Below, one piece after another: positions 4,121-18,336 of a DNA stretch of 20,012 bases. Position 1 is the stretch's first letter; every line of letters starts with the position of its first letter. Below the pieces are notes generated by a model that saw nothing but the letters and a program-made list of their open reading frames with translations, was not told the DNA's origin and made no database searches. The position numbers and the translations under genes are program-made. This stretch comes from an uncultured virus (IMG/VR IMGVR_UViG_3300032321_001470) (Duplodnaviria > Heunggongvirae > Uroviricota > Caudoviricetes): IMG/VR virus record IMGVR_UViG_3300032321_001470. One strand, given 5' to 3'.

Positions 4121-4130
4121 TGGGCCCCTC

Positions 4131-4391: not shown

Positions 4392-4693
4392 TATTCCTCC
4401 ACCAAGTCATACTGCTCAGCATCGATGTCGAGCACGCGCTCTAACTTATAAGTTTCAATATCACCCACAAACTCGTTGATGGTCTTCCCGCAGTCATAGC
4501 ACTCAATCGAGGTGACGTAGGAACCGCCATCCCCAAGTGAGTAATCATTGGCGATGCCGATCTGCACGCCACCCATCCCGCTTGGTGTGCCTGTGACCTC
4601 AAAAGACATCGACACGCTGCCGAGGAAGTAGACCCCTCGTCGCTTCTCCCCTTCTGGGGCATCGGACAGGGGGCACGTCTTATGAACTAACAT
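4391..4693 (-). CDS. hypothetical protein (HxxC...CxxC)
   Basis: Start MLVHKTC with AGGAGGAGG RBS; TAATG coupling. Confidence 0.7.
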   Translation of the reverse strand: MLVHKTCPLSDAPEGEKRRGVYFLGSVSMSFEVTGTPSGMGGVQIGIANDYSLGDGGSYVTSIECYDCGKTINEFVGDIETYKLERVLDIDAEQYDLVEE

Positions 4694-5091
4694 TACTCCT
4701 CCTCCTTCTTGTACCCATAGCGGGCGCATGGCTCACAACCATCGCACTCTTCATTGCTCAGCATGACCGCCGCTGCATGGAAGATCTCCTCGCAGGTGAA
4801 GTCGTGCTCACAGGAGAGTACCTGATGGATGTCTTGGTTGTCAACAACGCGCTCAAGGAACGCGTCCTTCTCCTCCTTTTCCATCTGGATCACATCCCAG
4901 CCGTAGCAGATGACTGCCGCGGGGAACTTCTCATAGATCCCGTCGAATGCTGTGTGGTAATAGGCAATCTCAAGACCTTGGCTGTTCCTCTCAAAGAGGA
5001 TCTCCCGCTCGCCGTTGCCGTCCTTCGTCCAGATCGACAGGTTTTCGTTTGCCGTGATGCTCTCGTCGTGAAGAATGTGCCACATACTCAT
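4693..5091 (-). CDS. hypothetical protein
   Basis: Start MSMWHIL with GGAGGT RBS and ATGA overlap; C-terminal CDGCEPC. Confidence 0.7.
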   Translation of the reverse strand: MSMWHILHDESITANENLSIWTKDGNGEREILFERNSQGLEIAYYHTAFDGIYEKFPAAVICYGWDVIQMEKEEKDAFLERVVDNQDIHQVLSCEHDFTCEEIFHAAAVMLSNEECDGCEPCARYGYKKEEE

Positions 5092-5330
5092 ACCTCCGTA
5101 TTGATTTCCCATGCCTCACCCTCGGTGCCGTCCTCATTGATTTCGGCTACCGACACCGCGATGGTGTTGCCTTCGAGGAAATCCCAGTTGCCAAGCCCCT
5201 GCTCGGCTGCATCGTCCGCAACCGCGGTAAGCAACCGATCACCCTCTAAGCCAGCCAAGTCCTCTCCATCGTAAGAGAGATCAACTGAGAAGTCATCGAT
5301 CTTCTGAATGTACACTCTGAACCGCTTCAT
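5088..5330 (-). CDS. acidic hypothetical protein
   Basis: 80 aa; ATGA overlaps at both ends; AGGAGG RBS. Confidence 0.7.
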   Translation of the reverse strand: MKRFRVYIQKIDDFSVDLSYDGEDLAGLEGDRLLTAVADDAAEQGLGNWDFLEGNTIAVSVAEINEDGTEGEAWEINTEV

Positions 5331-5572
5331 ACAACAATCCTCCTAATCAGCCATAGCGTTATCGGCGTAAACACAATCGTCGCCGTGATGCCGCCAACAA
5401 CTCCAAATAAACCCTGACCGAATCCAACAGCCACAAAGAGCGGGATTACTGACATTTGTAGTTTCCCGAATCCATCAAGGCTGATCCACAGCCACAGCGC
5501 ACCAATCCCCAAGAGTGCGATGCTGATGGTGAGTCCGATCGCGTGTCGGGCGATTTCCCAAACGATCTCCAT
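5327..5572 (-). CDS. small membrane protein
   Basis: Two to three hydrophobic segments; AAAGGAG RBS. Confidence 0.7.
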   Translation of the reverse strand: MEIVWEIARHAIGLTISIALLGIGALWLWISLDGFGKLQMSVIPLFVAVGFGQGLFGVVGGITATIVFTPITLWLIRRIVV

Positions 5573-5594
5573 AGTGCTCCTTTCCTATGGGGGC

Positions 5595-5624
5595 ATTGTA
5601 AGGCAGGGGATAGCGGTTAGTCAA
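5595..5624 (-). promoter_or_regulatory. sigma70-type promoter of the leftward operon
   Basis: Minus strand TTGACT-N18-TACAAT. Confidence 0.75.
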
Positions 5625-5708
5625 GTTTGGGGTGGGGGTGGGGTGGCTTGACAAGACTTATTATTTGTGGCAGTCCCGAGCTCGCAAGCGAGGGCCGAAC
5701 CCTATTAT

Positions 5709-5738
5709 TTGACAGACGGTTATTGGCTGACTTATAAT
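5709..5738 (+). promoter_or_regulatory. sigma70-type promoter
   Basis: TTGACA-N18-TATAAT, preceded by a degenerate hairpin-CGAAC element (about 5667-5700) and followed by a TAGGC-AGTTA-GCCTA leader hairpin. Confidence 0.8.
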
Positions 5739-5777
5739 GCGGTTAGGCAGTTAGCCTATAGGTGTAAGGAGGAAGTT

Positions 5778-6092
5778 ATGGCTGTCGAAACGATTGAGCA
5801 GTTATTTGCGGAACAGAAGTCAGGCAAGTTAATCAACGAGCGCAGGGAGTTGAATCTTAGGCTCCGCGATGCGCACTACCTTCTAACAGAGATGGTTGAG
5901 CCGCTTCTCGGCGCGGTCATCACAGGCGGGGTAGTTATTGGAAACGGCGATGACGAGCCGTTTGTTCCAGTCTTGTTCGTTATTCAGAACGGCAAGAAGT
6001 ACAGCGTTATTATTCAGTCTGATGACGAGGGCAATGACGGCGGTCGCCTTATCTTTGATCGCGGCACGGCTCAGATGGTTCCAACTTTGTAA
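5778..6092 (+). CDS. hypothetical protein
   Basis: TAAGGAGG RBS before ATG 5778; contains IIQSDDEGNDGG. Confidence 0.75.
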   Translation: MAVETIEQLFAEQKSGKLINERRELNLRLRDAHYLLTEMVEPLLGAVITGGVVIGNGDDEPFVPVLFVIQNGKKYSVIIQSDDEGNDGGRLIFDRGTAQMVPTL

Positions 6093-6255
6093 TAAGGAGG
6101 AGATGTAGTTATTGTAATCTCCTTCAACCGCTAAAAAAATAATTAGTTCGCCCTCAACAAGCTCCGGCTTGTTGAGGTAGAACTTGACAGGCGGGTAAGT
6201 TCTGCCTTACAATCTGATGGTGCGGGGCTTCCCGCGAGGACACAAGGAGGACATA

Positions 6256-7065
6256 ATGCCAAACTGGTGCGTGAACCAAGTGGACATTGGCGGCGACGAG
6301 GCAGAGGTCGCAAAGTTGATTGAGTTCGTCAAGGGCGAAGAAGATGCCTTTGACTTCTCCAACATCGTGCCGACTCCCGACAGCCCACACTACGCAGTAA
6401 GCGAAGGTCAGAACGATTTCCTTTGCGGCTGTAAGCCAGAGTTCGTCATCACCAAAGAAATGGTGAAGGGAGCGGAAGGACACGAGTACGAGAAGGAACA
6501 CGGCTTTGAGCCGCAGGAAGGCTACTGGGCTGTGGACGGCGTTGCGCTCAGGAAAGTAAATCTTGATAACGGCACGATTGAGGATTCCGTTGCCCAGATG
6601 TTTGGCGGGTCAGAGGTCTGCCCAAAGCACGACCTCCCGAGGATTTCATCGCAGCCAGACTGGTGGTACAACTGGAATGTTGCCAACTGGGGAACCAAGT
6701 GGAACTGCGGAGAAGTGTGGCACGACCGCGCTGACGACGACAAGGTTGATGGAAGGACTTCATACAACTTTGAGACGGCGTGGTCGCCAGCCGAGCCTGT
6801 GGTCGCTGCGCTTGCCGCAAAGTTTCCAACGCTCTCTATTGTCCATCGCTATTGTGAAGGCGGTATGGGATTCGCGGGGCAGGTAATCTACAACAACGGC
6901 GAAGAGGTGCTGCGCGATGATTACAACGCGACAGAACTTCCCGATGATGCGTGGATTGCCGAGGAAGATGGCAGCCGCGGATACGAGCGCGACTACGAGA
7001 AGGTTCCAATGACGGCAATGGAATCTTTCTGCGACGAGCACTTCGGCGGTATTGTCGGAGGCTAA
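6256..7065 (+). CDS. DUF1281 / YubB ferredoxin-like domain protein
   Basis: MPNWCVNQV start, WYNWNVANWGTKWN, FETAWSP and YCEGGMGFAG motifs; AAGGAGG RBS. Confidence 0.85.
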   Translation: MPNWCVNQVDIGGDEAEVAKLIEFVKGEEDAFDFSNIVPTPDSPHYAVSEGQNDFLCGCKPEFVITKEMVKGAEGHEYEKEHGFEPQEGYWAVDGVALRKVNLDNGTIEDSVAQMFGGSEVCPKHDLPRISSQPDWWYNWNVANWGTKWNCGEVWHDRADDDKVDGRTSYNFETAWSPAEPVVAALAAKFPTLSIVHRYCEGGMGFAGQVIYNNGEEVLRDDYNATELPDDAWIAEEDGSRGYERDYEKVPMTAMESFCDEHFGGIVGG

Positions 7066-7109
7066 TGACTTCGGGGCGTAAGGAGTCCTCCCTGCGCCCC
7101 ATAAAGTAA

Positions 7110-7143
7110 TAAACCCCCTGATTACTCAGGGGGTTTATTATTA
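7110..7143 (+). terminator. intrinsic terminator
   Basis: TAAACCCCCTGA-TTAC-TCAGGGGGTTTA followed by TTATT. Confidence 0.75.
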
Positions 7144-7250
7144 TGTTCCACTCAAAGGGCTCCGGCCCTTTGAGGTAGAACTTGACGCGATCTTGTGCTT
7201 GTGGGAGAATCTTCTTACGGCAGTTGCCGTATGTAAAGAAGGAGGACGCA

Positions 7251-8213
7251 ATGGCACACGAAGTAGAAACGATGGCGTACAACAAGGAGCGAGGTATGCC
7301 GTGGCACGGACTTGGCGTAGCAACGAGCGGCTTGACCACAAGCGCAGAAATGATTGTTGCGGCTGGTCTTGACTGGCGCGTACAGCAGCAGCCAATCTTC
7401 ACCACGCTTGGCGAGAAGACAATCGCTATTGAGGGCAAGCGCGCAAATGTGCGCTCGACTGACGGCGCGGTTCTCGGCGTTGTCGGCGACCGCTACACGC
7501 CAATCCAGAACGATGAGATGATGTCGTTCGCTGACGCGCTACTCGACGAGGGCGCACGCTACGAAACCGCAGGTTCGCTCAAAGGCGGGCAAGTAATCTT
7601 CGCGGCGTTGGAGATTCCTGAAAAGATTTCCATCAAGGGCGACAACGGCGAAACCACAACTTACCTTGTGATTGCCAACGGGCACAACGGGCTGTTCCCG
7701 CTCAAAGCGATGATTACGCCTGTGCGCGTGGTCTGCCAGAACACGCTCAACGCGGCTCTTGGCTCTACCAAGATGTCGTTCACTCTCCGCCACACGGCGA
7801 AGATTGAGGAGAAAGTCGCAGAAGCGAAACGCGCCCTCGGGTTGGCTTCCGCCGCTGTTGATGAGTTCTCGCGCATCGGCTCGCAGATGGTCGTTCAGAA
7901 GATTGAGCGTTCGGAAGCGTTCCGCATCATCTCAAAGATCTTCCCGCTGTCGGAGTCGGAGAAGCGCGACAAGGAAGTAATGTCGGAGCGCGCAAAGGCA
8001 ACCTTCGCGATTCTGAATAACGCGCAGAATCTTGACGGGCTTCGCGATACGAAGTGGGGTGTCTACAACGCCATCGCGGAGTATCTCGACCACGGCGTTT
8101 CCTATCGTGGCGGCGTTCGCTCAACGGCTCTTGATGCGCGAGCGTCAAGCGTGATGTTGGATACGGGCTTCGCGGCGAAGACAAAGCGCGAGGCGATTCT
8201 CGCCCTCGCGTAA
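7251..8213 (+). CDS. DUF932 (phage/plasmid-like, TIGR03299-type) protein
   Basis: MAHEVETMAY...PWHGLG, YTPIQN, YETAGSLKGG, TPVRVVCQNTL, RHT and TKWGVYNAIAEYLDH; AAGGAGG RBS. Confidence 0.9.
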   Translation: MAHEVETMAYNKERGMPWHGLGVATSGLTTSAEMIVAAGLDWRVQQQPIFTTLGEKTIAIEGKRANVRSTDGAVLGVVGDRYTPIQNDEMMSFADALLDEGARYETAGSLKGGQVIFAALEIPEKISIKGDNGETTTYLVIANGHNGLFPLKAMITPVRVVCQNTLNAALGSTKMSFTLRHTAKIEEKVAEAKRALGLASAAVDEFSRIGSQMVVQKIERSEAFRIISKIFPLSESEKRDKEVMSERAKATFAILNNAQNLDGLRDTKWGVYNAIAEYLDHGVSYRGGVRSTALDARASSVMLDTGFAAKTKREAILALA

Positions 8214-8236
8214 TCTTCACCAGAAGATAAAGCAAG

Positions 8237-8268
8237 AATCCCGCCCTTCGGGGCGGGGTTTTTGTTTT
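8237..8268 (+). terminator. intrinsic terminator
   Basis: AATCCCGCCC-TTCG-GGGCGGGGTT followed by a T-run. Confidence 0.85.
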
Positions 8269-8371
8269 ACTCCAAGTAGCTCCGGCTACTTGGAATCGAA
8301 CATTTGACTTGCGCTAGGTTGTGCCTTACAATCCTAGTACGGCAGTTGCCGTGAGGACAAAGGAGGACGAA

Positions 8372-8677
8372 ATGGCAGCGAGTTTCGACAAGGTTGAGGA
8401 GTACCTAGAAAATGCGAAGGGTATCGCGTTTGATACCTGCCACAAGATCTATGTCTTGATGGACGACGAGCAGATGGAAATGATGAAGGGATACGGCTAC
8501 GACCCGCTGATTTCCGCAGATGATTCCACCGCAAATGAAATGCTCACGACCATTATGGATTGGTATGAGGATTCTTGCGGCTTGCGATTTGTTCAGGCGG
8601 TTTACACAAACAACGACGACCCAAATGAAGGATTCGTTTCCTTGATTGAGCAGGGCGCGGAGTGGGAGGCAGAATGA
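8372..8677 (+). CDS. acidic hypothetical protein
   Basis: AAGGAGG RBS; AFDTCHKIYVL and SCGLRFV motifs. Confidence 0.8.
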   Translation: MAASFDKVEEYLENAKGIAFDTCHKIYVLMDDEQMEMMKGYGYDPLISADDSTANEMLTTIMDWYEDSCGLRFVQAVYTNNDDPNEGFVSLIEQGAEWEAE

Positions 8678-8841
8678 GTAAGTGGATTGTCGTATTACAG
8701 AACACAGGCTATCGGGAGTTTGAGGTAGAAGCCGATAGCAAAGAGGAGGCAGAGAAGAAGGCGTGGGCTGCTTCCGAGGAACCCGCTCCGTGGGATACGA
8801 CCCCAGAAACAATCGTATGGAGTACGGAGGAGTTGGTATGA
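8674..8841 (+). CDS. 55-aa acidic protein (VEADSKEEA motif; below ORF-track cutoff)
   Basis: MSKWIVVLQNTGYREFEVEADSKEEAEKKAWAASEEPAPWDTTPETIVWSTEELV; ATGA overlaps at both ends; GGAGG RBS. Confidence 0.75.
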   Translation: MSKWIVVLQNTGYREFEVEADSKEEAEKKAWAASEEPAPWDTTPETIVWSTEELV

Positions 8842-9308
8842 GCGGGCAAATGGACAAATGCGTTCGCTGCTCCACGATGGTCTTCTACGCCGACGAGAAG
8901 GTCATCGGCACTTGGAATGGTATGCCGTACACGCGATTCGATACGCTCGACTTTGAGCAGTATGATGGGGGCGTGCCAGACGGCTATCTGGTTTACTGCT
9001 TGGACTGCGCTCCTTGCGAGTGTGAGTTTCACCCGCCGTTTATGTCGGACAAGGAAGCCGTAGCCGATGGTTGGTGCTTCCGCGCTGATTGTGAGTTTGC
9101 TCTCAATCGCGATGGCGACGCTAACTGGCATCGCCACTACAACGACATTCCGCGTGAGTCCGCGAGTGAATGTCTGTGCCGAGATGTTGATTATGCGCCG
9201 TGCGGGTTATGCGACCCAGACGAGGGCGTGGACACGGGCGACAACCCAGAAGGCTGCTCTGCTCCTGTCTGTATGGCGTGTGGTTATACAACAAACCAGA
9301 TTTACTAG
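8838..9308 (+). CDS. Cys-rich hypothetical protein
   Basis: Start MSGQMDKC with GGAGGAG RBS; several CxxC/CxC motifs. Confidence 0.7.
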   Translation: MSGQMDKCVRCSTMVFYADEKVIGTWNGMPYTRFDTLDFEQYDGGVPDGYLVYCLDCAPCECEFHPPFMSDKEAVADGWCFRADCEFALNRDGDANWHRHYNDIPRESASECLCRDVDYAPCGLCDPDEGVDTGDNPEGCSAPVCMACGYTTNQIY

Positions 9309-9435
9309 GCGCATTTATTAGTTCGCCTCCAATGAGCTCCGGCTCATTGGACTAGAACCCGCTTGACGGATTGCCAAGCGTGGTCTTACAATAAGCAGGT
9401 CGGGGCTTCCCGATAAGAGGACATAAGGAGGCTGT

Positions 9436-9984
9436 ATGCCACTAAGTTGGTTCGTGGGAAACATCAAGGACGCGGATGATGTCTGTTGGCTCACCGCAAC
9501 AAAGAGCAGCGTGATGGATGGACGCGTGCGCGGCGAGGAGTACCTCAGCCCAATCACGAACTCCTTCATCTGGGCAACGATGACGATTGGACTAAACGAA
9601 ATCACCGAAGCCAATGTGGATGAGTGGGAGCAGCGACTCGCGCTCGCATACGAAATCGGTTGGCTCTCAAAGATGACCGTATGGAACGGCAACGAGCCAG
9701 ATGGCGATAAGAACGCAGATTGCTTTGAGGCTCGCCCCCTGACGCGTGCCGACATCGTTCGGCACATCGGACTCTCAACAAACGCCTCTTACGAGTCGCC
9801 GACGGCTTGGCGCAAGCGCGTTGTTGAGCGTATGACTGAGGAAGGTTTGCGCGAGGCAAAGCACGCTGAGAAGCGCAACGCCGAACTTGACGCAATCTGG
9901 ATGAAGGAAGGCAACGAGTTGCGAGATGAGATTCGCAGCGGCAAGACAACCAAAGAAGAAGCAGCAAAGGTGGTGGTAGCGTGA
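9436..9984 (+). CDS. hypothetical protein
   Basis: TAAGGAGG RBS; 182 aa; first gene of its cassette. Confidence 0.8.
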   Translation: MPLSWFVGNIKDADDVCWLTATKSSVMDGRVRGEEYLSPITNSFIWATMTIGLNEITEANVDEWEQRLALAYEIGWLSKMTVWNGNEPDGDKNADCFEARPLTRADIVRHIGLSTNASYESPTAWRKRVVERMTEEGLREAKHAEKRNAELDAIWMKEGNELRDEIRSGKTTKEEAAKVVVA

Positions 9985-10457
9985 AGAACTGGAAAGCATA
10001 CGAACTAGTCGTCAAGCGAAAGAAGGTTGCTGATCAGTCCGATGAGAGGGTTGAGCAGCCAGCCGTGGCAGCGAAGATGTTCAGAGATTTCGCAAAGGAC
10101 TCCAATCAGGAGTCGCTGTTTGTGATGGTGCTTGGGGGAAGAAATAACCTCATTGGGATTGAGCAGGTCTATGTCGGTACGGCGACAGGCACAAGCGTTC
10201 GGGTCAATGAGGTGTTCCGCTCTTGTATCCTGACTGGCGGTCAGGGCATCGTGGTTGTTCACAATCACCCAAGCGGCGATCACGCCCCATCTGACGAGGA
10301 TAAGAAACTGACTGAGGACTTGATTCGCGGAGCGCGACTCTTGGACATTGAGTTCTTGGATCATCTTGTTATTTCATCGGAGGGATACACCAGTATCCGC
10401 TCTAATGTTCCAAACATCTGGGCGATTGACTTGGAGCAAAGCGAAGTTATCGTGTAG
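9981..10457 (+). CDS. radC: RadC-like JAB domain protein (stand-alone)
   Basis: QESLFV...VVHNHPSGDHAPSDED...IEFLDHLVI JAB motif; GTGA coupling. Confidence 0.9.
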   Translation: MKNWKAYELVVKRKKVADQSDERVEQPAVAAKMFRDFAKDSNQESLFVMVLGGRNNLIGIEQVYVGTATGTSVRVNEVFRSCILTGGQGIVVVHNHPSGDHAPSDEDKKLTEDLIRGARLLDIEFLDHLVISSEGYTSIRSNVPNIWAIDLEQSEVIV

Positions 10458-10479
10458 TCATTGGGTTATCTAAACAACT

Positions 10480-10504
10480 AACCGCCTTCGGGCGGTTTTT
10501 TGTT
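10480..10504 (+). terminator. intrinsic terminator
   Basis: AACCGCC-TTCG-GGCGGTT followed by a T-run. Confidence 0.85.
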
Positions 10505-10610
10505 GTACCCAAGATAGCTCCGGCTATCTTGGCTAGAACCTATTGACGGGCGGCGAGCAGTACCTTACAATGACCTTACCCTGATTGGGGTGTGGAATAA
10601 GGAGGACGAA

Positions 10611-11060
10611 ATGGGCTACGACATTTACTCATTGCGAGAGAATCGTGAACTGGCGGCGGCGCACGCGAAGAAGCACCGCTCAATGTGGATTGAGGCAGAC
10701 GGCTCTTACGCGGAGAAAGCACCCAGCGCGGTCTATTTCCGACTGAACATTTGGGGTATGGGCTACCTGCGCGCTTTCCACGAGGAGATTGGATTCCCAG
10801 AGGTCAATGAGAATCTGTACGATAACAGCGGGAACATCATCAAGGACTATGAGTGCGAAGAACTACACAATGCCATCTCCGAGTTGAGTGAAGAAAAAAT
10901 CAAGGAGATTATTACTGGTATTCTTCTTGCCAGCCCTTACACGGACGATAAGACGAAGGCTGACCCAGATGAGGAGGCTACGGCTTGGGTTGCGATTGTT
11001 GAGGAGTGGCGAGAGTTTCTAGGTCTTTGCCGAACCCTGAAAGGGTGCGAAGTCCTATGA
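10611..11060 (+). CDS. hypothetical protein
   Basis: TAAGGAGG RBS; MGYDIY...YFRLNIWGM...WREFL. Confidence 0.8.
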   Translation: MGYDIYSLRENRELAAAHAKKHRSMWIEADGSYAEKAPSAVYFRLNIWGMGYLRAFHEEIGFPEVNENLYDNSGNIIKDYECEELHNAISELSEEKIKEIITGILLASPYTDDKTKADPDEEATAWVAIVEEWREFLGLCRTLKGCEVL

Positions 11061-11269
11061 GCGAATACTTTGAGATTCCGATTGGAGATTCGCAGTTAGT
11101 CCGCAAGTGCGACTGCCCAGACAATCTGCGCGAGGCGCATTGGCTCTGGTCTGATTGCGAGAAGGAAGGGCACGATGAAGGCTGCTTCGTCGTGTGGTGT
11201 CGTCATTGCGACCTCTATTCAAGTGATTGCGAAGAAGATTGGAAGTTAGTGCCAGACGACTGGAAGTAA
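11057..11269 (+). CDS. small Cys/His-rich protein
   Basis: ATGA overlap; MSEYFEIP...KCDC...WCRHC. Confidence 0.65.
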   Translation: MSEYFEIPIGDSQLVRKCDCPDNLREAHWLWSDCEKEGHDEGCFVVWCRHCDLYSSDCEEDWKLVPDDWK

Positions 11270-11391
11270 GTCGTTATGGTTCAGCCCCAAGTGGCCGCGG
11301 CCACTTGGGCTAGAACCCACTTGACGGCTGGGCAGAGATGACTCTATAATGGGCTTGCCCCACTTGGGGTGCTGTGAACAAGGAGGACGAA

Positions 11392-11676
11392 ATGGCAAAG
11401 AGCATCAAGCGCGCAGAGGCAGCAGAGATGATTCGCCAGAGCAATGGCGCAATCTTCGGCGTGGACTTCATCAAGCGAACCACAGGAGAACTTCGCAAGA
11501 TGACGGCGCGTATCGGCGTGAAGAAGCACCTCAAAGGCGGCGTTGCTGCCTATGACGCGGCGGCGAAAGACCTTATCTTCGTCTACGACATTACCGCCGA
11601 GGGCTATCGCTCCATCGCCCTTGACGCAATCACCGCGCTTCGCATCGGCGGCGAGCAGTACGAGGTGAAGGCGTAA
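11392..11676 (+). CDS. Sm-like/SH3 beta-barrel protein (WYL_2/DUF2693-like)
   Basis: FGVDFIKRTTGELRKMTAR...LIFVYDITAEGYRSI pattern; AAGGAGG RBS. Confidence 0.7.
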   Translation: MAKSIKRAEAAEMIRQSNGAIFGVDFIKRTTGELRKMTARIGVKKHLKGGVAAYDAAAKDLIFVYDITAEGYRSIALDAITALRIGGEQYEVKA

Positions 11677-11682
11677 ATAAAT

Positions 11683-11888
11683 CCGCGCCGTGTAGAGGAC
11701 GGCTAGTTGGCAGATTGACGAACTGCCCGCGACGATAAGGTCTGGCTCTTGGGCTCCTAACCAGAGAGGGTAGAGTCAGCAGCAACTAGGCGAGAGCCGA
11801 AGGTTGCCTCCGCAAGGGGATAAGCGTCATAGCGGCGATACGCGGGGAGTCGTGCCAGATGTGGTGTCTGGCACGGCTCCCCTTTATT
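11683..11888 (+). ncRNA. candidate structured RNA downstream of the Sm-like gene
   Basis: Nested stems CTAGTTG/CAACTAG, GGCAG/CTGCC and CTGGCTCT/AGAGTCAG; GNRA hairpins GGC-GAGA-GCC and CTCC-GCAA-GGGG; terminator hairpin at 11844-11888; no ORF with an RBS. Confidence 0.5.
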
Positions 11889-11996
11889 GTTTCCGCTCAA
11901 ACAGCCGCGGCTGTTTGAGTTAGAACTTGACGGCTGGTCAATCATCATTTAGACTTGCTCCACGCCAACTTGGGCGAGGCTACGAAGGAGGACACG

Positions 11997-12206
11997 ATGG
12001 CAAAGAAGCACAGCGCGGACTTTACGCTCACGGACGGCGGCTCGGTCTGCCTACTCACGCCAACGACACGCGAGGCACGCGGCTGGCTTGACGAGAACAT
12101 CGGCGAGGACGCGATGTATCTCGGTCGCGGTCTTGCGATTGAGCGTCAGTATGTTCAGCAGATTCTAGATGGGATTCAGGCTGACGGATTTGAGGTGGCA
12201 GTCTAA
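11997..12206 (+). CDS. hypothetical protein
   Basis: GAAGGAGG RBS; MAKKHSADF... Confidence 0.8.
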   Translation: MAKKHSADFTLTDGGSVCLLTPTTREARGWLDENIGEDAMYLGRGLAIERQYVQQILDGIQADGFEVAV

Positions 12207-12415
12207 TGGACGAGAATAAGGTTTACCTCTGCCAAGTCTGCGAGAACGGAGAGGGCGTTTGGTGGGCGGACAATAACGCCGACAAGTTTGCGCGGTGGTA
12301 CTGCGAGAACTGCGAGGAGATTCGCTCCGAGAGGTGGGGCTGCGCGATGCTTATTGCCGAAGGCGCGACCTGCGAAGACGGCATCTGCGGCTGCGGCGGA
12401 ACGGGGGTCTACTAA
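12206..12415 (+). CDS. small Cys-rich protein
   Basis: TAATG coupling; CQVC, CENC and CEDGICGC. Confidence 0.7.
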   Translation: MDENKVYLCQVCENGEGVWWADNNADKFARWYCENCEEIRSERWGCAMLIAEGATCEDGICGCGGTGVY

Positions 12416-12549
12416 TGAGTACGATGGTTTGGTGCGACGACTGCGAGCGCAATGAGGTTGTCTGCGAGTGTGTTGTGAACGACGACAGGGAGAACGGCTG
12501 CTACGAGTTTGAGCAGTTTCAGAACTGCGAGCACCCGCAAGAGAGTTAG
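12415..12549 (+). CDS. 44-aa Cys-rich acidic protein
   Basis: TAATG coupling; MSTMVWCDDCERNEVVCECVVNDDRENGCYEFEQFQNCEHPQES. Confidence 0.6.
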   Translation: MSTMVWCDDCERNEVVCECVVNDDRENGCYEFEQFQNCEHPQES

Positions 12550-12712
12550 TTATTTGGCTCCTTGTTCTTTGAGTTTATTATTGTGGCAGCCCGAAGTGCA
12601 GCTGCACTTCGGGATAGAACTGTCAAGGGGGCGGCTGGTGGATAAAAAAGATTCATAAAGAATCTTTGGGAAAGTGCTTGACAAGACCCCAGACGAGGTG
12701 AGATACTCCCTA

Positions 12713-12939
12713 TGTCGGAAGCGATCCTAGGATAAGCAACCGACTGGGTGAGACTCTGGACGAGCGAGCAGATGCCGCAGCCAAGAAATGCGGGGATAGA
12801 GACGCAAAGGACGATGACCGCTAGGAGCCAATGTATCGGCGGAGCGGAAGGAAAAGGAGTCTGGGGAAGTGATTAGCCCCAGACAACGAATCCGAGGAAA
12901 GACCTCTCAGGGCGACGGCTCTGGGGGGTCTTTCTATTT
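12713..12939 (+). ncRNA. candidate stand-alone small RNA (about 225 nt) with its own promoter and terminator
   Basis: Promoter TTGACA(12678)-N18-GATACT; several hairpins; terminator GAAAGACCTCTCAGGG...CTCTGGGGGGTCTTTC-TATTT; no convincing ORF. Confidence 0.6.
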
Positions 12940-13052
12940 GTTCGGCTCATCTTTGCTCCGGCAAAGATGAGTAGAACCCGCTTGACGGCTGATGATGTTT
13001 GTGCGTACAATGGTGCTACCCCGATTGGGGTGGCTAGTGAAGGAGGCAAACG

Positions 13053-13310
13053 ATGGGATACCTACAAGGGTCAATGACGATGTGCGGCAACGGCGACTGC
13101 TACTACGACCAATGCGAGTGCGAGATTCACGACCACGAAATGGTTCAGGAGTGCGAGGGCGAGGAGGCTCTCGGTCTGGACAAGCGTTGTCCGTTTGAGG
13201 GCAAGACGCGCTCGTTCGCTTACGGCTGGAACGGCTACGAGAACGCCTACGAGCATAAGCAATCGCTATGCGATGATTGCTACGACGCGCTCCAAAGCGT
13301 GGTCGTATGA
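13053..13310 (+). CDS. small Cys-rich acidic protein
   Basis: GAAGGAGG RBS; multiple Cys clusters, LCDDCY. Confidence 0.75.
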   Translation: MGYLQGSMTMCGNGDCYYDQCECEIHDHEMVQECEGEEALGLDKRCPFEGKTRSFAYGWNGYENAYEHKQSLCDDCYDALQSVVV

Positions 13311-13384
13311 TTGTTGAGTACGCCATATTCTACGGGCTGCTCCTGCTGCTAACGCTGTACGGACTCGCGCTCGTAAGCAAGTAG
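13307..13384 (+). CDS. 25-aa putative membrane peptide
   Basis: MIVEYAIFYGLLLLLTLYGLALVSK; ATGA overlap with the upstream stop. Confidence 0.5.
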   Translation: MIVEYAIFYGLLLLLTLYGLALVSK

Positions 13385-13502
13385 TCGTTATTGTGGCGGC
13401 GCAAGGAGCCGAGGCTCCTTGCGGTGGAACTTGACAGGCGCAGAACTTATCGCGTATAATCGTGTAGTCGGGAACTCCCGATAGTTGCGAGTAGGAGGAC
13501 TT

Positions 13503-13766
13503 ATGGACAGCAAGATTCGGGCGTGGACTTACGAGGGGTCGTTCCATTGCGTAGCGTGCGCCACGGCGCGATTCGGCGACGCACTTGACGATGGGCAGAC
13601 AACTGACCGCGAGGGCAACACCCTCGGTCCTGTCTTTGAGTGGGACGAGGTGAATCTCTGCGGCGACACTTGCGGCACCTGCCTCAACTGGGCAGTAGAG
13701 CCAGAGGCGCACGAGCCAGCCAGTTGTTTATTCGGCGCAGATTGTCGCCAGTTTGAGTTCGCATAG
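13503..13766 (+). CDS. small zinc-binding protein
   Basis: TAGGAGG RBS; HCVAC and CGDTCGTC. Confidence 0.75.
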   Translation: MDSKIRAWTYEGSFHCVACATARFGDALDDGQTTDREGNTLGPVFEWDEVNLCGDTCGTCLNWAVEPEAHEPASCLFGADCRQFEFA

Positions 13767-13813
13767 CGGACTAATGTCTACGAGGTGGCGGCAGCCTCCA
13801 CCACCTCTTCCCC

Positions 13814-13855
13814 AAGCGGGCTAGTTGATCGCAGCCAACTAGCCCGCTTTTTGTT
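13814..13855 (+). terminator. intrinsic terminator
   Basis: AAGCGGGCTAGTTG...CAACTAGCCCGCTT followed by a T-run. Confidence 0.85.
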
Positions 13856-13963
13856 ATGCCCCAAGTAGCAGCGGCTACTTGGGCTAGAACCCGCTTGACA
13901 GGCTGGGAAAGTTCACATTACAATGGGCGTAGCCCAGTTGGGTTGAGAAGACAGGAGGCTAGA

Positions 13964-14305
13964 ATGTTCAGAGCATTTGCAATCTCACTCACGAACAGCG
14001 ACTTCTACCAGTTCTACTGCTCGCAGGGCGAAGTGTGCAGCAAGTGCCCAGTCTGGTATCTCCGACCAGAAGTTCGGAGCCGCGTTGAGCCGCACGCCAT
14101 CAAGATTGAACTCATCTATGGAGATACGATGGACGGCGTTGCGATCCCAGACGAGTCGCACGAAACCGAACTTGATGGAACTTACGACAGGTTCCAGTAC
14201 GCGATCGTTCACTGGCGCAATGATGGATTCATTGACTTCGTTGTCTTTGATTCAACTGAAGCCGCGCAGCGCGAGATGCAAGACATTGTGAGCGTCTTCG
14301 CCTAA
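13964..14305 (+). CDS. hypothetical protein
   Basis: CAGGAGG RBS before ATG 13964. Confidence 0.75.
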   Translation: MFRAFAISLTNSDFYQFYCSQGEVCSKCPVWYLRPEVRSRVEPHAIKIELIYGDTMDGVAIPDESHETELDGTYDRFQYAIVHWRNDGFIDFVVFDSTEAAQREMQDIVSVFA

Positions 14306-14435
14306 ACCCGCGATAAATTAGTTCAGCCCCTAATGGCTCCGGCCATTAGGGATAGAACGCGCTTGACAGGCTGGCAGTTTATCCCTTAGTATTCAGAGGT
14401 CGGGGCTTCCCGATGAAGAAAGAGGAGGCTAGAAA

Positions 14436-14843
14436 ATGGGTAAGGCAATCAAATTCGGAGTCGGCAAGTTTGAGGACGCAACGCCAAACGGCGCACTCTT
14501 CAACTGGGTTGAGGTGGTGGACTTCAACGATGACGGCAGCACGCTCAAAGAGATTTACCGCGTGGGCGAGTTTGACATCACCGAGGTCGCGGTTTCTGGC
14601 AAGTACGGCGCGACGAGTGTGGTGCTCTGGTGCGATGAGGAGGGGCTTTTCAATGAGCCAGTCGTTCGCAATCAGGCGGCAACATCGCTGCGAAATGAGA
14701 TTCTCGGCGGGAACTTTGACGGCATCTATGGCAACTGCGTATTGACCGCAGAGGACAAGGACGGGCAGACGCTCGCCCTCAATGATGAGCAGGTGGAAGA
14801 AATCCGCACGCTGCTAGAACTGGGCGGCTACCCTATCGCGTAA
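14436..14843 (+). CDS. DUF3846-like protein
   Basis: LWCDEEGLF...NQAATSL...IYGNCVLT pattern; GAGGAGG RBS. Confidence 0.7.
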   Translation: MGKAIKFGVGKFEDATPNGALFNWVEVVDFNDDGSTLKEIYRVGEFDITEVAVSGKYGATSVVLWCDEEGLFNEPVVRNQAATSLRNEILGGNFDGIYGNCVLTAEDKDGQTLALNDEQVEEIRTLLELGGYPIA

Positions 14844-14866
14844 AGTTTCGCAGCTGCGAGAACATC

Positions 14867-14891
14867 AACGAGGGGTGCGCCCCTCGTTTTT
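14867..14891 (+). terminator. intrinsic terminator
   Basis: AACGAGGGG-TGCG-CCCCTCGTT followed by a T-run. Confidence 0.8.
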
Positions 14892-15004
14892 GTTTGCCTC
14901 CAATCTGCCTCGGCAGATTGGACTAGAACCACTTGACGGCAGGCAGAAGATGACTCTATAATGGCAGCAGCCCACTTGGGCTGGCTAGGAATAGGAGGCT
15001 ACAA

Positions 15005-15214
15005 ATGGCAACGATGGAAGACTTGGACTACGCCCCCTGCGAGCAGTGCGGCGATGGTATGAGCGAAACACTCGTCCAGAACGGCAAGCCACTTTGCGAG
15101 AGGTGCCACAACAAAATCAACTGCGGGTGCGAAACCTGCACTTGTGAGGAGTGCGGCGAGGTTCACGAGGCTGACCTAGCAAACGAGAGCGACTATCGGG
15201 AGGTAGGGAAATAA
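15005..15214 (+). CDS. small Cys-rich protein
   Basis: TAGGAGG RBS; CEQC, CERC and CGCETCTCEEC. Confidence 0.75.
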   Translation: MATMEDLDYAPCEQCGDGMSETLVQNGKPLCERCHNKINCGCETCTCEECGEVHEADLANESDYREVGK

Positions 15215-15435
15215 TGAACGAGAACACTTGGATTCAGATTCACACAAATGGCGCAAGCACGACCTTTGCCCGTTGGTATGAAGGGCAAGACGCGGAAGGA
15301 GATACGGTCTTTGTCTTTGAGAAGATGGCGACCGACTTTGTGAATAGCATCGTTGAGGTGTTCGGCGTTGAGGAGTTCGGCAGCGCGGAAGGCGCAACTA
15401 ATCGCCTACAAGAAGCCGTCGCGCTTGCGCGATAA
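15214..15435 (+). CDS. acidic hypothetical protein
   Basis: TAATG coupling; GGAGGT RBS. Confidence 0.7.
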   Translation: MNENTWIQIHTNGASTTFARWYEGQDAEGDTVFVFEKMATDFVNSIVEVFGVEEFGSAEGATNRLQEAVALAR

Positions 15436-15478
15436 CTAGATGCTCACAACGGGGAACTAGCCCCTCGGAGTGAAACAA

Positions 15479-15504
15479 TAAGCCCCGCTTCGGCGGGGTT
15501 TATT
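15479..15504 (+). terminator. intrinsic terminator
   Basis: AAGCCCCGC-TTCG-GCGGGGTTT followed by ATT. Confidence 0.8.
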
Positions 15505-15614
15505 GTTATGGCTCAAGGAGCCGAGGCTCCTTGAGATAGAACGCTTGACAAGCAGCCAGAAGTTGGCGTACTATTGTCTTGCGGCACTTGCCGTGGCGAA
15601 CGAAGGAGGCAACA

Positions 15615-15887
15615 ATGTTCGGTATCGCAGCGACCTATGTCACGAAGTTCATCAGCACCCCAGGTCACGGCTACCTCGTGTCTACGAAGGCAATGCTCCG
15701 CGAACTCGGCATCGCGGATAAGATTAGCAACTGCTCGTATGAGCGCAACGGCAGCGTCTACCTTGAGGAAGATGTTGATGCGCCGCTATTCCTCGCCGCA
15801 ATGGAGAAGGCGGGCTTCACGGTTTCGTACAACTCGGTGAGCGTGAACGACGACTACACCGCAAAGATGGAGTATTACTCGGCGTAA
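15615..15887 (+). CDS. conserved phage protein (PGHGYL...YLEED motif)
   Basis: GAAGGAGG RBS; STPGHGYL, ISNCSY and VYLEEDVD motifs seen in uncharacterised phage proteins (from memory). Confidence 0.75.
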   Translation: MFGIAATYVTKFISTPGHGYLVSTKAMLRELGIADKISNCSYERNGSVYLEEDVDAPLFLAAMEKAGFTVSYNSVSVNDDYTAKMEYYSA

Positions 15888-16020
15888 ACTCCTCGCCGCT
15901 CAGTATTAGTTCGGCTCTAGGTAGCCGCGGCTACCTAGACTAGAACGCTTGACAGCGCGCAGAATCTCACTCTATAATGGCAGCAGCCCACTTGGGCGAG
16001 GCTAATAAGGAGGCTAGACA

Positions 16021-16338
16021 ATGAGCGGACAATACAACGGCTGGAGCAACTACGAAACTTGGTTGGCGGCGTTGTGGATTGGCGAGGGCTACGCGGGGGG
16101 CAGTGATTACGTTTCGGAGATTGCCGCCGAGATTCTTACGGACAACGAGGGCGACAGCGACGAAGCCGCCGACACTCTCGCGGACACCTTGCGCAACGAC
16201 ATTGACGAAACTTGGACAACGAGGGCGGCAGGTCTTGAGGCAGACCTATTGCGTGCCGCGGTTGAGGCAATCAACTGGCACGAAATCGCACGCACCTATG
16301 TAGATGACGCGAAAGCCGAGGCAAAGGCAGAAGCATAA
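16021..16338 (+). CDS. acidic conserved phage protein (YNGWSNYETW motif)
   Basis: TAAGGAGG RBS; N-terminal YNGWSNYETW and C-terminal INWHEIA; very D/E-rich. Confidence 0.8.
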   Translation: MSGQYNGWSNYETWLAALWIGEGYAGGSDYVSEIAAEILTDNEGDSDEAADTLADTLRNDIDETWTTRAAGLEADLLRAAVEAINWHEIARTYVDDAKAEAKAEA

Positions 16339-16356
16339 ACACACCAGAACAGAAGC

Positions 16357-16477
16357 AAGCCCCCCCAAGAACCGCCGAGGCTCTTGGGGGGCTTATTATT
16401 TGGGCAAGCCCTCCTCGCCGGGCGAGGAGGGATCAAACAGAAAGCCCCCCGCTGCCGCGTGGCAACGAGGGGCTTCT
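16357..16477. terminator. converging terminators of the two arrays
   Basis: AAGCCCCCCCAAGA...TCTTGGGGGGCTT-ATTATTT (+) and AAGCCCCC...GGGGCTT at 16442-16476 (-). Confidence 0.7.
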
Positions 16478-16480
16478 GGT

Positions 16481-16711
16481 TTAGTCGCCTCCTGGAAGCG
16501 GGTCGGTATCCGTTCCGATAAACCCACGCTCGGGGCTAATCCTGCGCTTGGTGCGCTCCCAAGCGTCATCTTCTTCCGCAATAGAATCGGCGTATTCCAC
16601 CGCCCATTTCTCGTAATAGGAATCGCGTCCTTCTACGCACGCAGCGCAGATAGTTGATAGTGGCTCAAACTCGTTGAAGAAATCAACGCCACAATCTTGG
16701 CACGCTACCAT
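16481..16711 (-). CDS. small zinc-finger protein
   Basis: TAAGGAGG RBS; CQDC and CAAC. Confidence 0.75.
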   Translation of the reverse strand: MVACQDCGVDFFNEFEPLSTICAACVEGRDSYYEKWAVEYADSIAEEDDAWERTKRRISPERGFIGTDTDPLPGGD

Positions 16712-16940
16712 TTTATTGCCTCCTTATCGCAACACGGGAAGCCCCGCACCGACATAGTGCCTGAATCGCTGGGTTCATTATAGTTCGTCTGATGCGAGCG
16801 GAGCGAGCGGCAGAACCCTAGGCCAGTTATCTTAGTTAGTTATGCAGTTAGTTATTAGTCGGGTTGGCGAGCTCGAACGAAGTGAGAGAGTCGGGATAGA
16901 CCACCCCACCCACCGCCGAAGCGGTGAGTGGGGTGATGCG

Positions 16941-17285
16941 CTACGCCTGACCGTAGCAGGTCTTCTCCATGTCTAGTGTGTGCGTGAGCCTCTTGGACTC
17001 TTCGCCGCACTCCTCGCACTCCCAATAGCCGAATAGCGAGAGGTCGTCATCACTCGCGTCAGCATAAACGCTGGCGAACTCTGCAATCTCCTCGGCGTAG
17101 TGGTGTGGCTTCTCCATCACATCAACCGCATGGTCGGCGGTATCAGCGCGGCGAGCGTATGATGACGCCCACAACTCTAGCGCGTGCTCATCAGCACCAC
17201 CAGACGCCTCTACGAATCGCCATGTGTGATAGTCCACGACGCTATCGTTGCGCTCCTCTATTGCTTGATTCTTCATGACTCCCAT
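16941..17285 (-). CDS. acidic hypothetical protein (CxxC near C-terminus)
   Basis: TAAGGAGG RBS before MGVMKNQ. Confidence 0.75.
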   Translation of the reverse strand: MGVMKNQAIEERNDSVVDYHTWRFVEASGGADEHALELWASSYARRADTADHAVDVMEKPHHYAEEIAEFASVYADASDDDLSLFGYWECEECGEESKRLTHTLDMEKTCYGQA

Positions 17286-17523
17286 TACTAGCCTCCTTAT
17301 TACTACACGGCATTTGCCGCACCTGAATAATGCCACCGTCGCGTGATTCGTTTAGGTTCCTCTGATAGGCGCGGAGCGCCGAGTCGAACCAGTTATTAGT
17401 CAGTTAGTTATTAGGTTAGTTAGGTCACAGACTGGCGGTCTCGAACGAAGTGAGAGACTCGGGATTGAACCACCACCGCCCAGACCCGATGGTCTGGACG
17501 ATGGTGGAGTGAAGCGGTTGCGA

Positions 17524-17829
17524 CTACTCTTCGTCGCAATCGTCGTCGTATGAACCTAGTTCAATGTCATCGGCGCCGCAATCCTCGCAATCGTACATGC
17601 CGAATTTGCCGATGTCATACAGGAAACTATCATTGCCAAGAGCGATTGCGTAATCCGCAAGACGCTCAAGGTGCTCCTCTGGTCGCAGCGTCATGCTCAC
17701 CACGTCCATGACGTCCAACTTGGCGAACCCTGAACGATTGCGATAGGTGACGAACGACTCAACGATGTCTACGAGCGAGCGGGGATCGCCACCGCTGCCC
17801 ACTGGAGTGAACCGTAAACTATGACCCAT
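17524..17829 (-). CDS. hypothetical protein, paralog of 19089-19385
   Basis: TAGGAGG RBS; shared YDIGKFGxYxCExCxxDDIExGSY tail. Confidence 0.8.
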   Translation of the reverse strand: MGHSLRFTPVGSGGDPRSLVDIVESFVTYRNRSGFAKLDVMDVVSMTLRPEEHLERLADYAIALGNDSFLYDIGKFGMYDCEDCGADDIELGSYDDDCDEE

Positions 17830-18051
17830 TGCTTTACCCTCCTATTCATAACACGGGAAGCCCCGCACCTGAATAATGCCACGAGGGGGTGATTCATTTA
17901 GGTGGTCTCGTTAGGCGCGGAGCGCCGAGTAGAACGGTTAGTTAGTTAGTTATCTTATGGGTTGTCGGTCTCGAACGAAGTGAGAGAGCCGAGATTGAAC
18001 CACCACCGCCAACCGCCGAAGCGGTTGACGATGGTGATTTGCTGTGGCGGT

Positions 18052-18336
18052 CTACTTGAAGGTCGCGAGTTCAGTATTGTACTGCTCCTCGGTGATGACC
18101 TTGGTGCCGCACCCTGGGCACTCTGGGACGTCAGCGTAAACTTCTCTTACGTCCATTTCCTGAACGACGTTCCACGCCTTCATCGCGCGAACGAAATCAG
18201 TGTTGACGACGATTCCCAAATACTTCGGAAGCCCCGCTTCTGCGCAATACTCGCAAACGATTTCGTCGCCCAAGAAGAACGCAACAACGTCCGCTGCGCC
18301 CTCGCCCTTTGCTACAATCTTGATGTACTCCAACAT
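18052..18336 (-). CDS. small zinc-ribbon protein
   Basis: TAAGGAGG RBS; CEYC and CPGC. Confidence 0.75.
   Translation of the reverse strand: MLEYIKIVAKGEGAADVVAFFLGDEIVCEYCAEAGLPKYLGIVVNTDFVRAMKAWNVVQEMDVREVYADVPECPGCGTKVITEEQYNTELATFK

Follow-up and report, generated by a model that had tools for sequence, protein, structure and literature searches.

The DNA described here is a 20,012-nt window comprising bases 13339-33350 of a 33,350-bp IMG/VR virus record (IMGVR_UViG_3300032321_001470; estimated completeness 40%) from an uncultured tailed phage. Between positions 6146 and 15946, the window contains 15 copies of a 38-bp element, the junction palindrome, each composed of a perfect 10-bp stem and a 4-nt loop set within a flanking frame of GTT(C) on the 5′ side and TAGAAC on the 3′ side. 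The 15 arms are all distinct and perfectly paired, each at the place given by an earlier reading of the sequence alone (the sequence-only reading), and the loop is closed by a G-C pair in every copy. The fixed frame GTTN...NT(A/C)GAAC proposed in that reading describes most copies but not all: GTT is present in 12/15, the 5′ frame is displaced by one base at 7144 (TGTTCCA), the copies at 12583 and 13393 begin with GTGG instead, and the 3′ flank is TAGAAC in 13 copies, TCGAAC in one and TGGAAC in one. When the units are folded as single-stranded DNA, the outer GTTC and GAAC close across an internal loop of 2-3 nt in most copies, as had been anticipated. A sixteenth, degenerate copy with a 10-bp stem, a 3-nt loop and the flank ATCAAAC lies past the last gene at 16402-16438. 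Perfect 10/4/10 palindromes number 16 in the window, of which 15 are the elements and one is a long terminator, compared with a mean of 0.01 and a maximum of 1 in 200 Markov resamples, which excludes a chance origin. A perfect-hairpin scan of the whole contig detected no element in the remaining 19 kb; the other hairpins that it detected are terminators.

Each palindrome is embedded in a composite intergenic unit with a constant order of parts: a T/A-rich run, the palindrome, a gap of 0-4 nt, a promoter of the form TTGAC(A/G) with a 17-18-nt spacer and TAnnnT, a small hairpin, the Shine-Dalgarno (SD) sequence AAGGAGG and the ATG start codon. As the sequence-only reading had noted, TTGAC begins 0-4 nt past the element in 14/15 window copies; for the element at 12583, the -35 hexamer is located ~57 nt downstream. 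Scanning positions 6000-16600 for the sigma-70 consensus yields 19 promoter-like sites, all on the + strand, versus 5.3 ± 2.3 in shuffled sequences, and 15 of the 19 are located behind the 15 elements. The small hairpin, with 4-6 bp and a 4-nt loop (GCTT, AGTT, ACTT, GATT and others), lies ~7 nt past the -10 hexamer in every window cassette (e.g. 6222-6235), at the predicted 5′ end of the mRNA, and is probably a 5′ stabiliser. A canonical terminator hairpin followed by a T run precedes eight of the 15 elements. The earlier suggestion that the element is probably not transcribed therefore stands for these eight copies but not for the other seven, which have no terminator before them and where readthrough from upstream is expected.

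The units and the genes that they bound are all on the + strand. Palindrome 1 (6146-6183; arm CTCAACAAGC, loop TCCG) opens cassette 1 (6184-7065), which has its promoter at 6184-6213, a 5′-untranslated region (5′-UTR) hairpin, an SD sequence and a DUF1281_C/Api92-like gene at 6256-7065. Palindrome 2 (7144-7181; arm CTCAAAGGGC), the copy with GTTC displaced by 1, is followed by cassette 2 (7182-8213; promoter 7182-7210) with a DUF932 gene at 7251-8213. Behind palindrome 3 (8264-8301; arm TCCAAGTAGC, 3′ flank ATCGAAC), cassette 3 (8304-9308; promoter 8304-8332) contains three genes, at 8372-8677, 8674-8841 and 8838-9308. The loop of palindrome 4 (9321-9358; arm TCCAATGAGC) is TCCG, and that of its L176 orthologue is CGGA; cassette 4 (9363-10457; promoter 9363-9392) has genes at 9436-9984 and 9981-10457, the latter encoding a RadC-like JAB protein. 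Cassette 5 (10543-11269; promoter 10543-10571) follows palindrome 5 (10502-10539; arm CCAAGATAGC) and contains a gene at 10611-11060 and possibly another at 11006-11269. Palindrome 6 (11279-11316; arm CCCAAGTGGC, loop CGCG) precedes cassette 6 (11321-11676), with a promoter at 11321-11350 and a gene at 11392-11676 (phrog_2267). Cassette 7 (11927-12549; promoter 11927-11955), with genes at 11997-12206 and 12206-12415, begins directly after palindrome 7 (11889-11926; arm CTCAAACAGC).

Palindrome 8 (12583-12620; arm CCCGAAGTGC, loop AGCT, 5′ end GTGG) is the copy whose promoter is 57 nt away; its cassette 8 (12678-12939; promoter 12678-12707) specifies a conserved RNA of ~230 nt with no open reading frame (ORF) and ends in a terminator at 12896-12935. 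Palindrome 9 (12940-12977; arm TCATCTTTGC) is followed by cassette 9 (12982-13310; promoter 12982-13011, gene 13053-13310). Palindrome 10 (13393-13430; arm CGCAAGGAGC) has the flanks GTGG and GTGGAAC, and the promoter of cassette 10 (13431-13766), at 13431-13460, matches the consensus at 12/12 positions upstream of a gene at 13503-13766. The next two palindromes, 11 (13853-13890; arm CCCAAGTAGC, loop AGCG) and 12 (14321-14358; arm CCCTAATGGC), open cassette 11 (13895-14305; promoter 13895-13924, gene 13964-14305) and cassette 12 (14363-14843; promoter 14363-14392), whose gene at 14436-14843 belongs to the DUF3846 family. Palindrome 13 (14892-14929; arm TCCAATCTGC, loop CTCG) precedes cassette 13 (14933-15435; promoter 14933-14962) with genes at 15005-15214 and 15214-15435. 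Palindrome 14 (15505-15542; arm CTCAAGGAGC) opens cassette 14 (15545-15887; promoter 15545-15574, gene 15615-15887), which is missing in the relative G001, described below. Palindrome 15 (15909-15946; arm TCTAGGTAGC, loop CGCG) opens cassette 15 (15949-16338), with a 12/12 promoter at 15949-15978 and a DUF7249 gene at 16021-16338. The degenerate terminal copy (16402-16438; flank ATCAAAC), which scores 14.5 bits against the covariance model of the element, has no promoter behind it. We take several of the encoded families (DUF932, RadC-like, DUF1281/Api92-like and DUF3846) to be typical of early anti-defence regions in plasmids and phages.

A megablast search with the whole window as query gave no match among 50,697 phage records, and comparison with cultured phages yielded only distant matches for the terminase, DUF932 and portal proteins and none for the capsid protein; no phage record exceeds 29% identity to the terminase. 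Pattern scans of IMG/VR identified arrays in eight further records of ~80-kb phages, with 9-21 copies of the element per array, and a metagenome scan added 21 new 38-mers. Three records, G001, G004 and G005, are complete with terminal repeats; G001 (82,937 bp) is collinear with the window's contig at ~70-90% identity. Genomes of this clade encode an SU10-type capsid protein, a portal, a terminase, tail fibres, two ParB_N-domain proteins and helix-turn-helix (HTH) proteins, together with a lambda-like replication and recombination module composed of a DnaC-like loader, single-stranded DNA-binding protein (SSB), exonucleases and a RusA-like resolvase. A covariance-model search for the element (model R1), a check that the sequence-only reading had advised, covered 233,192 bases, among them the whole of G001 and the part of the contig outside the window. 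The model matched in array regions only, confining the element to the arrays; it found nothing in L009, L021, L024 or L025. Across 185,579 prokaryote genomes, the sequence pattern occurs 38 times and never as a palindrome; with only 2-7 of the 10 positions paired, these are chance matches. An origin of the element from host repetitive extragenic palindromic (REP) sequences was considered and rejected on the same result.

The 112 copies collected from these arrays, a set selected for perfect pairing, share the consensus [T/A x6] GTTC RSC YCCAANNRGC NNNN GCYNNTTGGR N TAGAAC, and TTGAC follows within 0-4 nt in 94 of them. GTT is present in 101-110 copies and GAAC in 110-112, and the GC closing the loop is conserved. 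Among arm positions, C2, C3, A4 and A5 are kept in 88, 92, 93 and 94 copies, respectively. Conservation is thus limited to the outer and innermost positions, and the set comprises 60 distinct arms and 11 different loop sequences. A pair that would lengthen the stem by one is formed in just 9/112 copies, suggesting that the 10-bp length is itself constrained.

One copy of the element is found at every junction between co-directional cassettes and one past the last gene. The first promoter of the rightward unit in the window (TTGACA, spacer, TATAAT; 5709-5738) has no palindrome; it drives the gene at 5778-6092, the first of the unit, whose product was considered as a protein that might read the element but is acidic and has no family match. 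A divergent promoter faces the leftward genes at 3899-5572. The complete G001 genome has 25 sites that agree with the promoter consensus at 10 or more of 12 positions; 11 of these have the element, all 11 inside the array, and the 12-of-12 first promoter of the G001 unit (18-nt spacer) lacks it, as do plausible promoters elsewhere. Conversely, the terminal copies located past the last gene of G004, G005 and the window have no sigma-70 promoter. The element is therefore not a general promoter part; it marks the array's end and the places where one co-directional cassette gives way to the next.

A hairpin in this position could in principle act in RNA. In readthrough transcripts, it might form a PeSL-like attenuator or terminator (PeSLs being the promoter-early stem-loop units of T4-type phages), an RNase III-type processing site or a 3′-end stabiliser. 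The element does lie 3′ of every cassette, including the last, and the seven copies without an upstream terminator would be transcribed; the UCCG loop found in some copies is of the UNCG type. PMC2839356 describes the stem-loops of T4-type PeSLs as terminators. Unlike an intrinsic terminator, however, the junction palindrome has no U tract after the stem, where nearly all copies read N-T-A-G-A-A-C; the T-rich run lies before the stem, and eight of the 15 copies are directly behind a canonical terminator. Searches of Rfam returned only a transfer RNA (tRNA) at the gathering score and no family for the element or for the ORF-less cassettes.

The pairing itself provides a stronger discriminator. 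Because the 112-copy set had been chosen for perfect pairing, we recounted pairs using the flanks as the only criterion, in an oriented scan of 233,130 bases. The 469 candidates fall into two classes, with six or fewer pairs in 343, 7-8 pairs in none, nine pairs in three and ten pairs in 123, and a looser scan gave the same bimodal distribution. Among candidates with at least nine pairs, some of whose loci are counted on both strands, 1257/1260 pairs are Watson-Crick and one is G.T. Two imperfect elements, both in G005, account for a G.T in one case and an A.C on the + strand in the other. Covariation is observed at all 10 stem pairs, and five orthologous elements of the window and G001 differ by a compensated pair. 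Two sets of RNA hairpins from the same intergenic regions were counted as controls: those resembling terminators immediately before the elements, with 45 G.U in 458 pairs (3/32 perfect), and those in the 5′-UTRs, with 76 G.U in 470 pairs (16/66 without G.U). Since G.U on one strand is A.C on the other, this pattern indicates that the element is constrained on both strands.

The loops point in the same direction. In contig Ga0315904_10015303, element 4 has an orthologue whose flanks and arms are unchanged but whose loop reads CGGA in place of TCCG, an exact inversion that would abolish any specific RNA tetraloop; the loop of element 5 is inverted in the same way, and a second contig agrees for both elements. 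The inversions indicate that function is indifferent to the orientation of the loop and that strand-switch events do occur at the palindrome. Watson-Crick-only pairing, compared with 10-16% G.U in the RNA hairpins nearby, together with the inverted loops, supports a pairing constraint that acts on DNA and not on RNA, in line with the sequence-only reading, and leaves an RNA hairpin as a very improbable explanation of the element.

Loop variation is also seen between two closely related genomes, G003 (L073) and G007 (L077), which are 95-97% identical. Six of 16 orthologous loops differ (CGCG, GGCG, CGCC, TGCG), mainly by C/G at positions 1 and 4, compared with 1/160 stem pairs. Illumina sequencing produces known errors at GGC next to inverted repeats, and these differences could reflect such an artefact or a mutation hot spot at the hairpin tip.

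The order of cassettes is not the same among five lineages. The DUF932 cassette, for example, is second in the window, G001 and G006, third in G005, fourth in G003 and G007 and sixth in G004. Element pairs that have only the upstream gene in common are more similar than background through the arm (0.72 versus 0.63) and fall to background in the next 30 nt (0.48 versus 0.47). Pairs with only the downstream gene in common are similar in their promoter segments (0.55-0.61 versus 0.44-0.47) and drop to background over the 30 nt that precede the element (0.41 versus 0.40). These segment-wise profiles place the switch in similarity within or beside the 38 bp. By eye, the arm of the DUF932 cassette (YCCAAAGGGC) is kept in five of six genomes behind different upstream genes (TCCAAATAGC in G006), and arm TCCAATCTGC remains downstream of the DUF3846 gene with a changed promoter and gene on its other side. 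The first arm follows its downstream gene and the second its upstream gene, which indicates that both sides are used. The earlier idea that cassettes are exchanged among relatives is thus borne out by their order and by the similarity profiles.

Individual events do not share a single breakpoint. At the site of the missing cassette 14, G001 has one element that is a nested mosaic, with the flanks and outer stem of element 14 and the inner stem and promoter of element 15. L135 has an extra cassette between two elements with the same arm, one of which is joined to an element-15-type promoter, placing the break between arm and promoter. A 75-aa ORF present in G007 and G004 but not in G003 is flanked by two AGTAAGGAGG SD repeats (L073 7981-7991 versus L077, G007 oriented 5587-5816), so that a gene was gained or lost here through microhomology of the SD sequences, and in L192 one gene has been replaced at the SD sequence. 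These last two, sharply mapped events occurred at SD repeats ~100 bp downstream of an element. The check proposed in the sequence-only reading, whether breakpoints map to a fixed base, thus gives a negative answer: two sharp events are at the SD sequence, one is in the gap between arm and promoter and one is inside the palindrome.

This distribution bears on the proposal, also made in the sequence-only reading, that the element is a dedicated recombination or nicking site read by its structure, where an enzyme, in the manner of IntI at attC, would excise and insert cassettes at one defined position. The variable sequence, constant structure and conserved flanks of the element are what such a site would predict, as is the flanking of N cassettes by N+1 elements, including the promoter-less terminal copy. 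The shuffled order, with its similarity switch within or beside the 38 bp, the G001 mosaic of elements 14 and 15 and the L135 cassette between same-arm elements fit as well. The sharpest breakpoints, however, lie elsewhere, at the AGTAAGGAGG repeats, at the replaced SD sequence and where an arm is joined to the promoter of another element. Profiles for Phage_integrase (PF00589), Resolvase and Y1_Tnp (PF01797) gave no match at E ≤ 1 in five relatives, three of them complete with terminal repeats, a result that leaves room for a distant or novel enzyme among unannotated ORFs; the control genomes were positive, 14/14 of them for PF00589. Pfam and PHROGs scans of the G001 proteins likewise detected no transposase or Rep. 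With no sign in these five relatives of the tyrosine or serine recombinase or HUH nuclease that had been suggested, and with sharp events not at one base, we regard a dedicated site as improbable. The exchange of cassettes is best read as general, not integron-like, recombination, with crossovers spread over a regulatory unit that recurs along the array, which is the pattern of the PeSLs of T4-type phages (PMC2839356, PMC4122927).

A second alternative is that the palindrome is an operator for a dimeric, sequence-reading regulator, such as a ParB_N-domain or HTH protein, which would recognize GTTC, YCCAA and GC half-sites and tune or shut the strong early promoters, the central symmetry arising from arm-to-arm conversion by template switching. 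The outer arm and flank positions are conserved among the 112 copies, the centre of the site is ~55-60 bp upstream of the start, and the site adjoins the -35 hexamer, the phage encodes both ParB-like and HTH proteins, and the loop inversions show that strand switching does take place here. Operators of the KorB/ParB type are palindromes just upstream of the -35 hexamer, and they share with operators of Aca-type regulators the use of one conserved sequence at all sites. The junction palindrome resembles them in its many copies beside promoters of a mobile element that encodes ParB-family proteins, but its 60 arms among 112 copies are not one operator sequence. Bases that are not read by a protein need not remain symmetric, and longer inverted repeats nearby (the terminators, with 10% G.U) have not been homogenised. 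The first and strongest promoter has no site, the terminal copies have no promoter to regulate, and the 0-4 nt jitter relative to the -35 hexamer fits poorly with such a role. An operator is therefore an unlikely account of the element.

From these comparisons, we interpret the 38-bp units as DNA-level, cruciform-capable junction palindromes that bound self-contained early cassettes in a clade of uncultivated ~80-kb tailed phages, and we assign this reading a probability of roughly 0.45. The palindrome would be read as a hairpin or cruciform. According to the twin-domain model, negative supercoils arise upstream of a transcribing RNA polymerase; those behind polymerase at the adjacent strong promoter would favour extrusion. 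The extruded palindrome may insulate tandem strong promoters from one another or mark the border between them, whether by taking up supercoils or by binding a structure-specific protein. A side effect or second function may be that of a hot spot for general recombination, driven by homology, microhomology or the structure itself and requiring no integrase.

Several observations weigh against this interpretation. It is not certain that a G+C-rich 24-bp palindrome would extrude at physiological supercoiling, and promoters so close to consensus may function without assistance. The distance between element and -35 hexamer varies by 0-4 nt, which also argues against a stereospecific contact with RNA polymerase, and the partly conserved arms (YCCAA...GC) are compatible with a sequence-reading protein. 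The perfect symmetry could partly reflect arm-to-arm conversion rather than selection; the terminators, which are not homogenised, argue against such conversion, as a general effect only.

A more elaborate version of the cruciform-capable boundary adds programmed exchange. Firing of the promoter would extrude the 24-bp palindrome, the resulting four-way junction would show YCC to a RusA-type resolvase, and the break that occasional resolution leaves at the cassette boundary would be repaired by the exonuclease, SSB and recombination functions of the phage, giving an integrase-free, structure-addressed exchange of anti-defence-type genes. All five relatives searched encode a RusA-like protein (E-values 1e-14 to 1e-16; at about 23.4-23.8 kb in G001), and the arms begin with YCC at the base of both hairpins, the preferred context for RusA-type cutting. 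On static junctions, RusA cleaves 5′ of CC, with the cut at the crossover or 1 bp away from it (PMC1636454). RusA-like genes are common in lambdoid modules, so this protein is a lead and not evidence, and we consider the full scheme a speculative one with little chance of being correct.

Among the closest described systems are the PeSLs of T4-type phages. According to PMC2839356, the PeSL stem-loop occupies variable places (five subclasses), contains G-T pairs and is an RNA terminator. PMC2839356 and PMC4122927 place PeSL crossovers at several points (the AT-rich region, the loop and between the -10 hexamer and the SD sequence) and know of no dedicated recombinase. Both systems are built from composite intergenic units in which a stem-loop is combined with an AT-rich stretch, an SD sequence and a strong promoter of the sigma-70-like kind, and in both the units flank small genes, mostly without annotated function, in a plastic region where gain, loss and replacement are bounded by the motifs. 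The junction palindrome differs in its fixed geometry and place, its GTTC/TAGAAC flanks, its exclusively Watson-Crick pairing and the separate terminators upstream, and its phages are not T4-like, having an SU10-type capsid and a lambda-like replication module. It is best filed as a structure-specified form of the PeSL-type regulatory cassette.

Integron attC sites (RYYYAAC ... GTTRRRY) have an imperfect stem with extrahelical bases and a variable length, and their promoter-less cassettes depend for expression on a single promoter upstream. The junction palindromes are similar in combining variable sequence with a conserved fold, in having one site per cassette in one orientation, in their variable order and in their GTT/AAC-type ends. 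They differ in that either strand reads GTT...GAAC, the opposite order to attC, the units have a constant length of 38 bp, extrahelical bases are missing, 123/126 scanned copies have 10/10 Watson-Crick pairs and all 15 elements have their own promoter-like site. The conclusion that this is not a classical integron, already drawn in the sequence-only reading from the reversed order of the site, is reinforced by the lack of an IntI-type integrase in the five relatives.

REP sequences and the larger bacterial interspersed mosaic elements (BIMEs) are imperfect chromosomal palindromes with a GTAG head that are tied to a Y1 HUH transposase (RAYT, the REP-associated tyrosine transposase) and for which gyrase binding has been proposed. 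Like the junction palindromes, they are intergenic palindromes of ~35-40 bp located after genes, between co-directional or convergent units and not at divergent promoters. The two are set apart by the absence of Y1_Tnp matches (PF01797, 0/5 relatives) and by the non-palindromic nature of the prokaryote pattern matches.

The early-promoter hairpins of phage N4 provide a precedent for a regulatory DNA hairpin. According to PMC4496689, supercoils made by gyrase drive their extrusion, and non-conserved stem bases are free as long as they are paired. The same paper describes three promoters, used by the injected RNA polymerase, and a hairpin with a 7-bp stem (at promoter P2), a 3-nt loop and conserved loop bases. 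In both phages, small inverted repeats at early promoters act as DNA (a function that is proposed here) and pairing is kept while stem bases vary. The junction palindrome differs in its 10-bp stem and 4-nt loop, in its 11 loop sequences, in its location upstream of an ordinary -35/-10 promoter and in its 9-21 copies per array. Neither an N4-like injected RNA polymerase nor a phage sigma factor was detected in our searches: the largest proteins have no RNA polymerase match in PHROGs or the PDB (a 1590-aa protein weakly resembles tail spikes), and the phage RNA polymerase profile PF00940 gave no match, although it also failed to match its control genomes and so carries no weight. A literature search that did not cover subscription journals found no phage cassette array described as having a perfect palindrome of variable sequence beside its promoters.

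A smaller framed hairpin occurs in the same window. Positions 16481-20012 contain, on the minus strand, a convergent array of ~100-aa genes with its own repeated leader of ~230 bp. The leader consists of a long hairpin with a G.T pair, CTCTCTCACTTCGTTCGAG and TAACTAAC repeats and then a hairpin, GTTCGA..GNCGC-TCC-GCGNC..AACC, with a 5-bp covarying stem, a TCC loop and a GTTC...AAC frame like that of the main element. Downstream follow a -35-like CTAAAC, 17 nt, CATTAT, a 5′-UTR hairpin and an SD sequence. This leader is possibly a second class of promoter with a smaller DNA hairpin, one closer in size to the N4 hairpins than is the junction palindrome.

Two cassettes in these arrays probably specify RNA instead of protein. 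Cassette 8 of the window (RNA about 12712-12940) has a promoter, no ORF, ~230 nt and a terminator at its end. About 150 nt of it are nearly invariant over five lineages whose proteins share just ~50-60% identity, and the RNA has a few covarying helices and no Rfam match; it is probably a structured phage RNA carried as a cassette. A second conserved ORF-less cassette of ~280 nt (L077:6446-6725, minus strand; beginning ...CACGAGCCGCTCTGG...) is also present in L074, L075 and L076 and, in a variant form, in L073. It is not found in the window, has no Rfam match and has the short motifs GACGAGCG and GACGATAAG in common with the cassette 8 RNA. Sub-threshold Rfam matches over both cassettes look like chance and were discarded. 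Outside the array, a tRNA-Ile gene with the anticodon TAT (window 3194-3269) is kept in relatives L073, L074 and L077. Upstream of the array, a nucleotide-sugar epimerase and a family-2 glycosyltransferase adjoin two ParB_N-domain proteins and an FkbM-type methyltransferase (L009:11154-12853, window 210-728; L009:7546-8226), a cluster that may form a DNA- or surface-modification module.

If the proposed reading is correct, the junction palindrome would be a clean natural example of DNA in a bacterial virus that is maintained because of the fold adopted by both strands and not because of its sequence; it would be the second such case, the N4 promoter hairpins being the first. Each genome has a dozen or more copies, which coincide exactly with the limits of portable expression cassettes. 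The unit formed by the boundary palindrome, consensus promoter, 5′ hairpin, strong SD sequence and terminator resembles, in natural form, the insulated parts of synthetic biology. It offers a testable connection from promoter-made supercoiling through cruciform extrusion to promoter insulation or targeted recombination, and would show how phages can maintain a modular, rapidly reshuffled gene array without an integrase.

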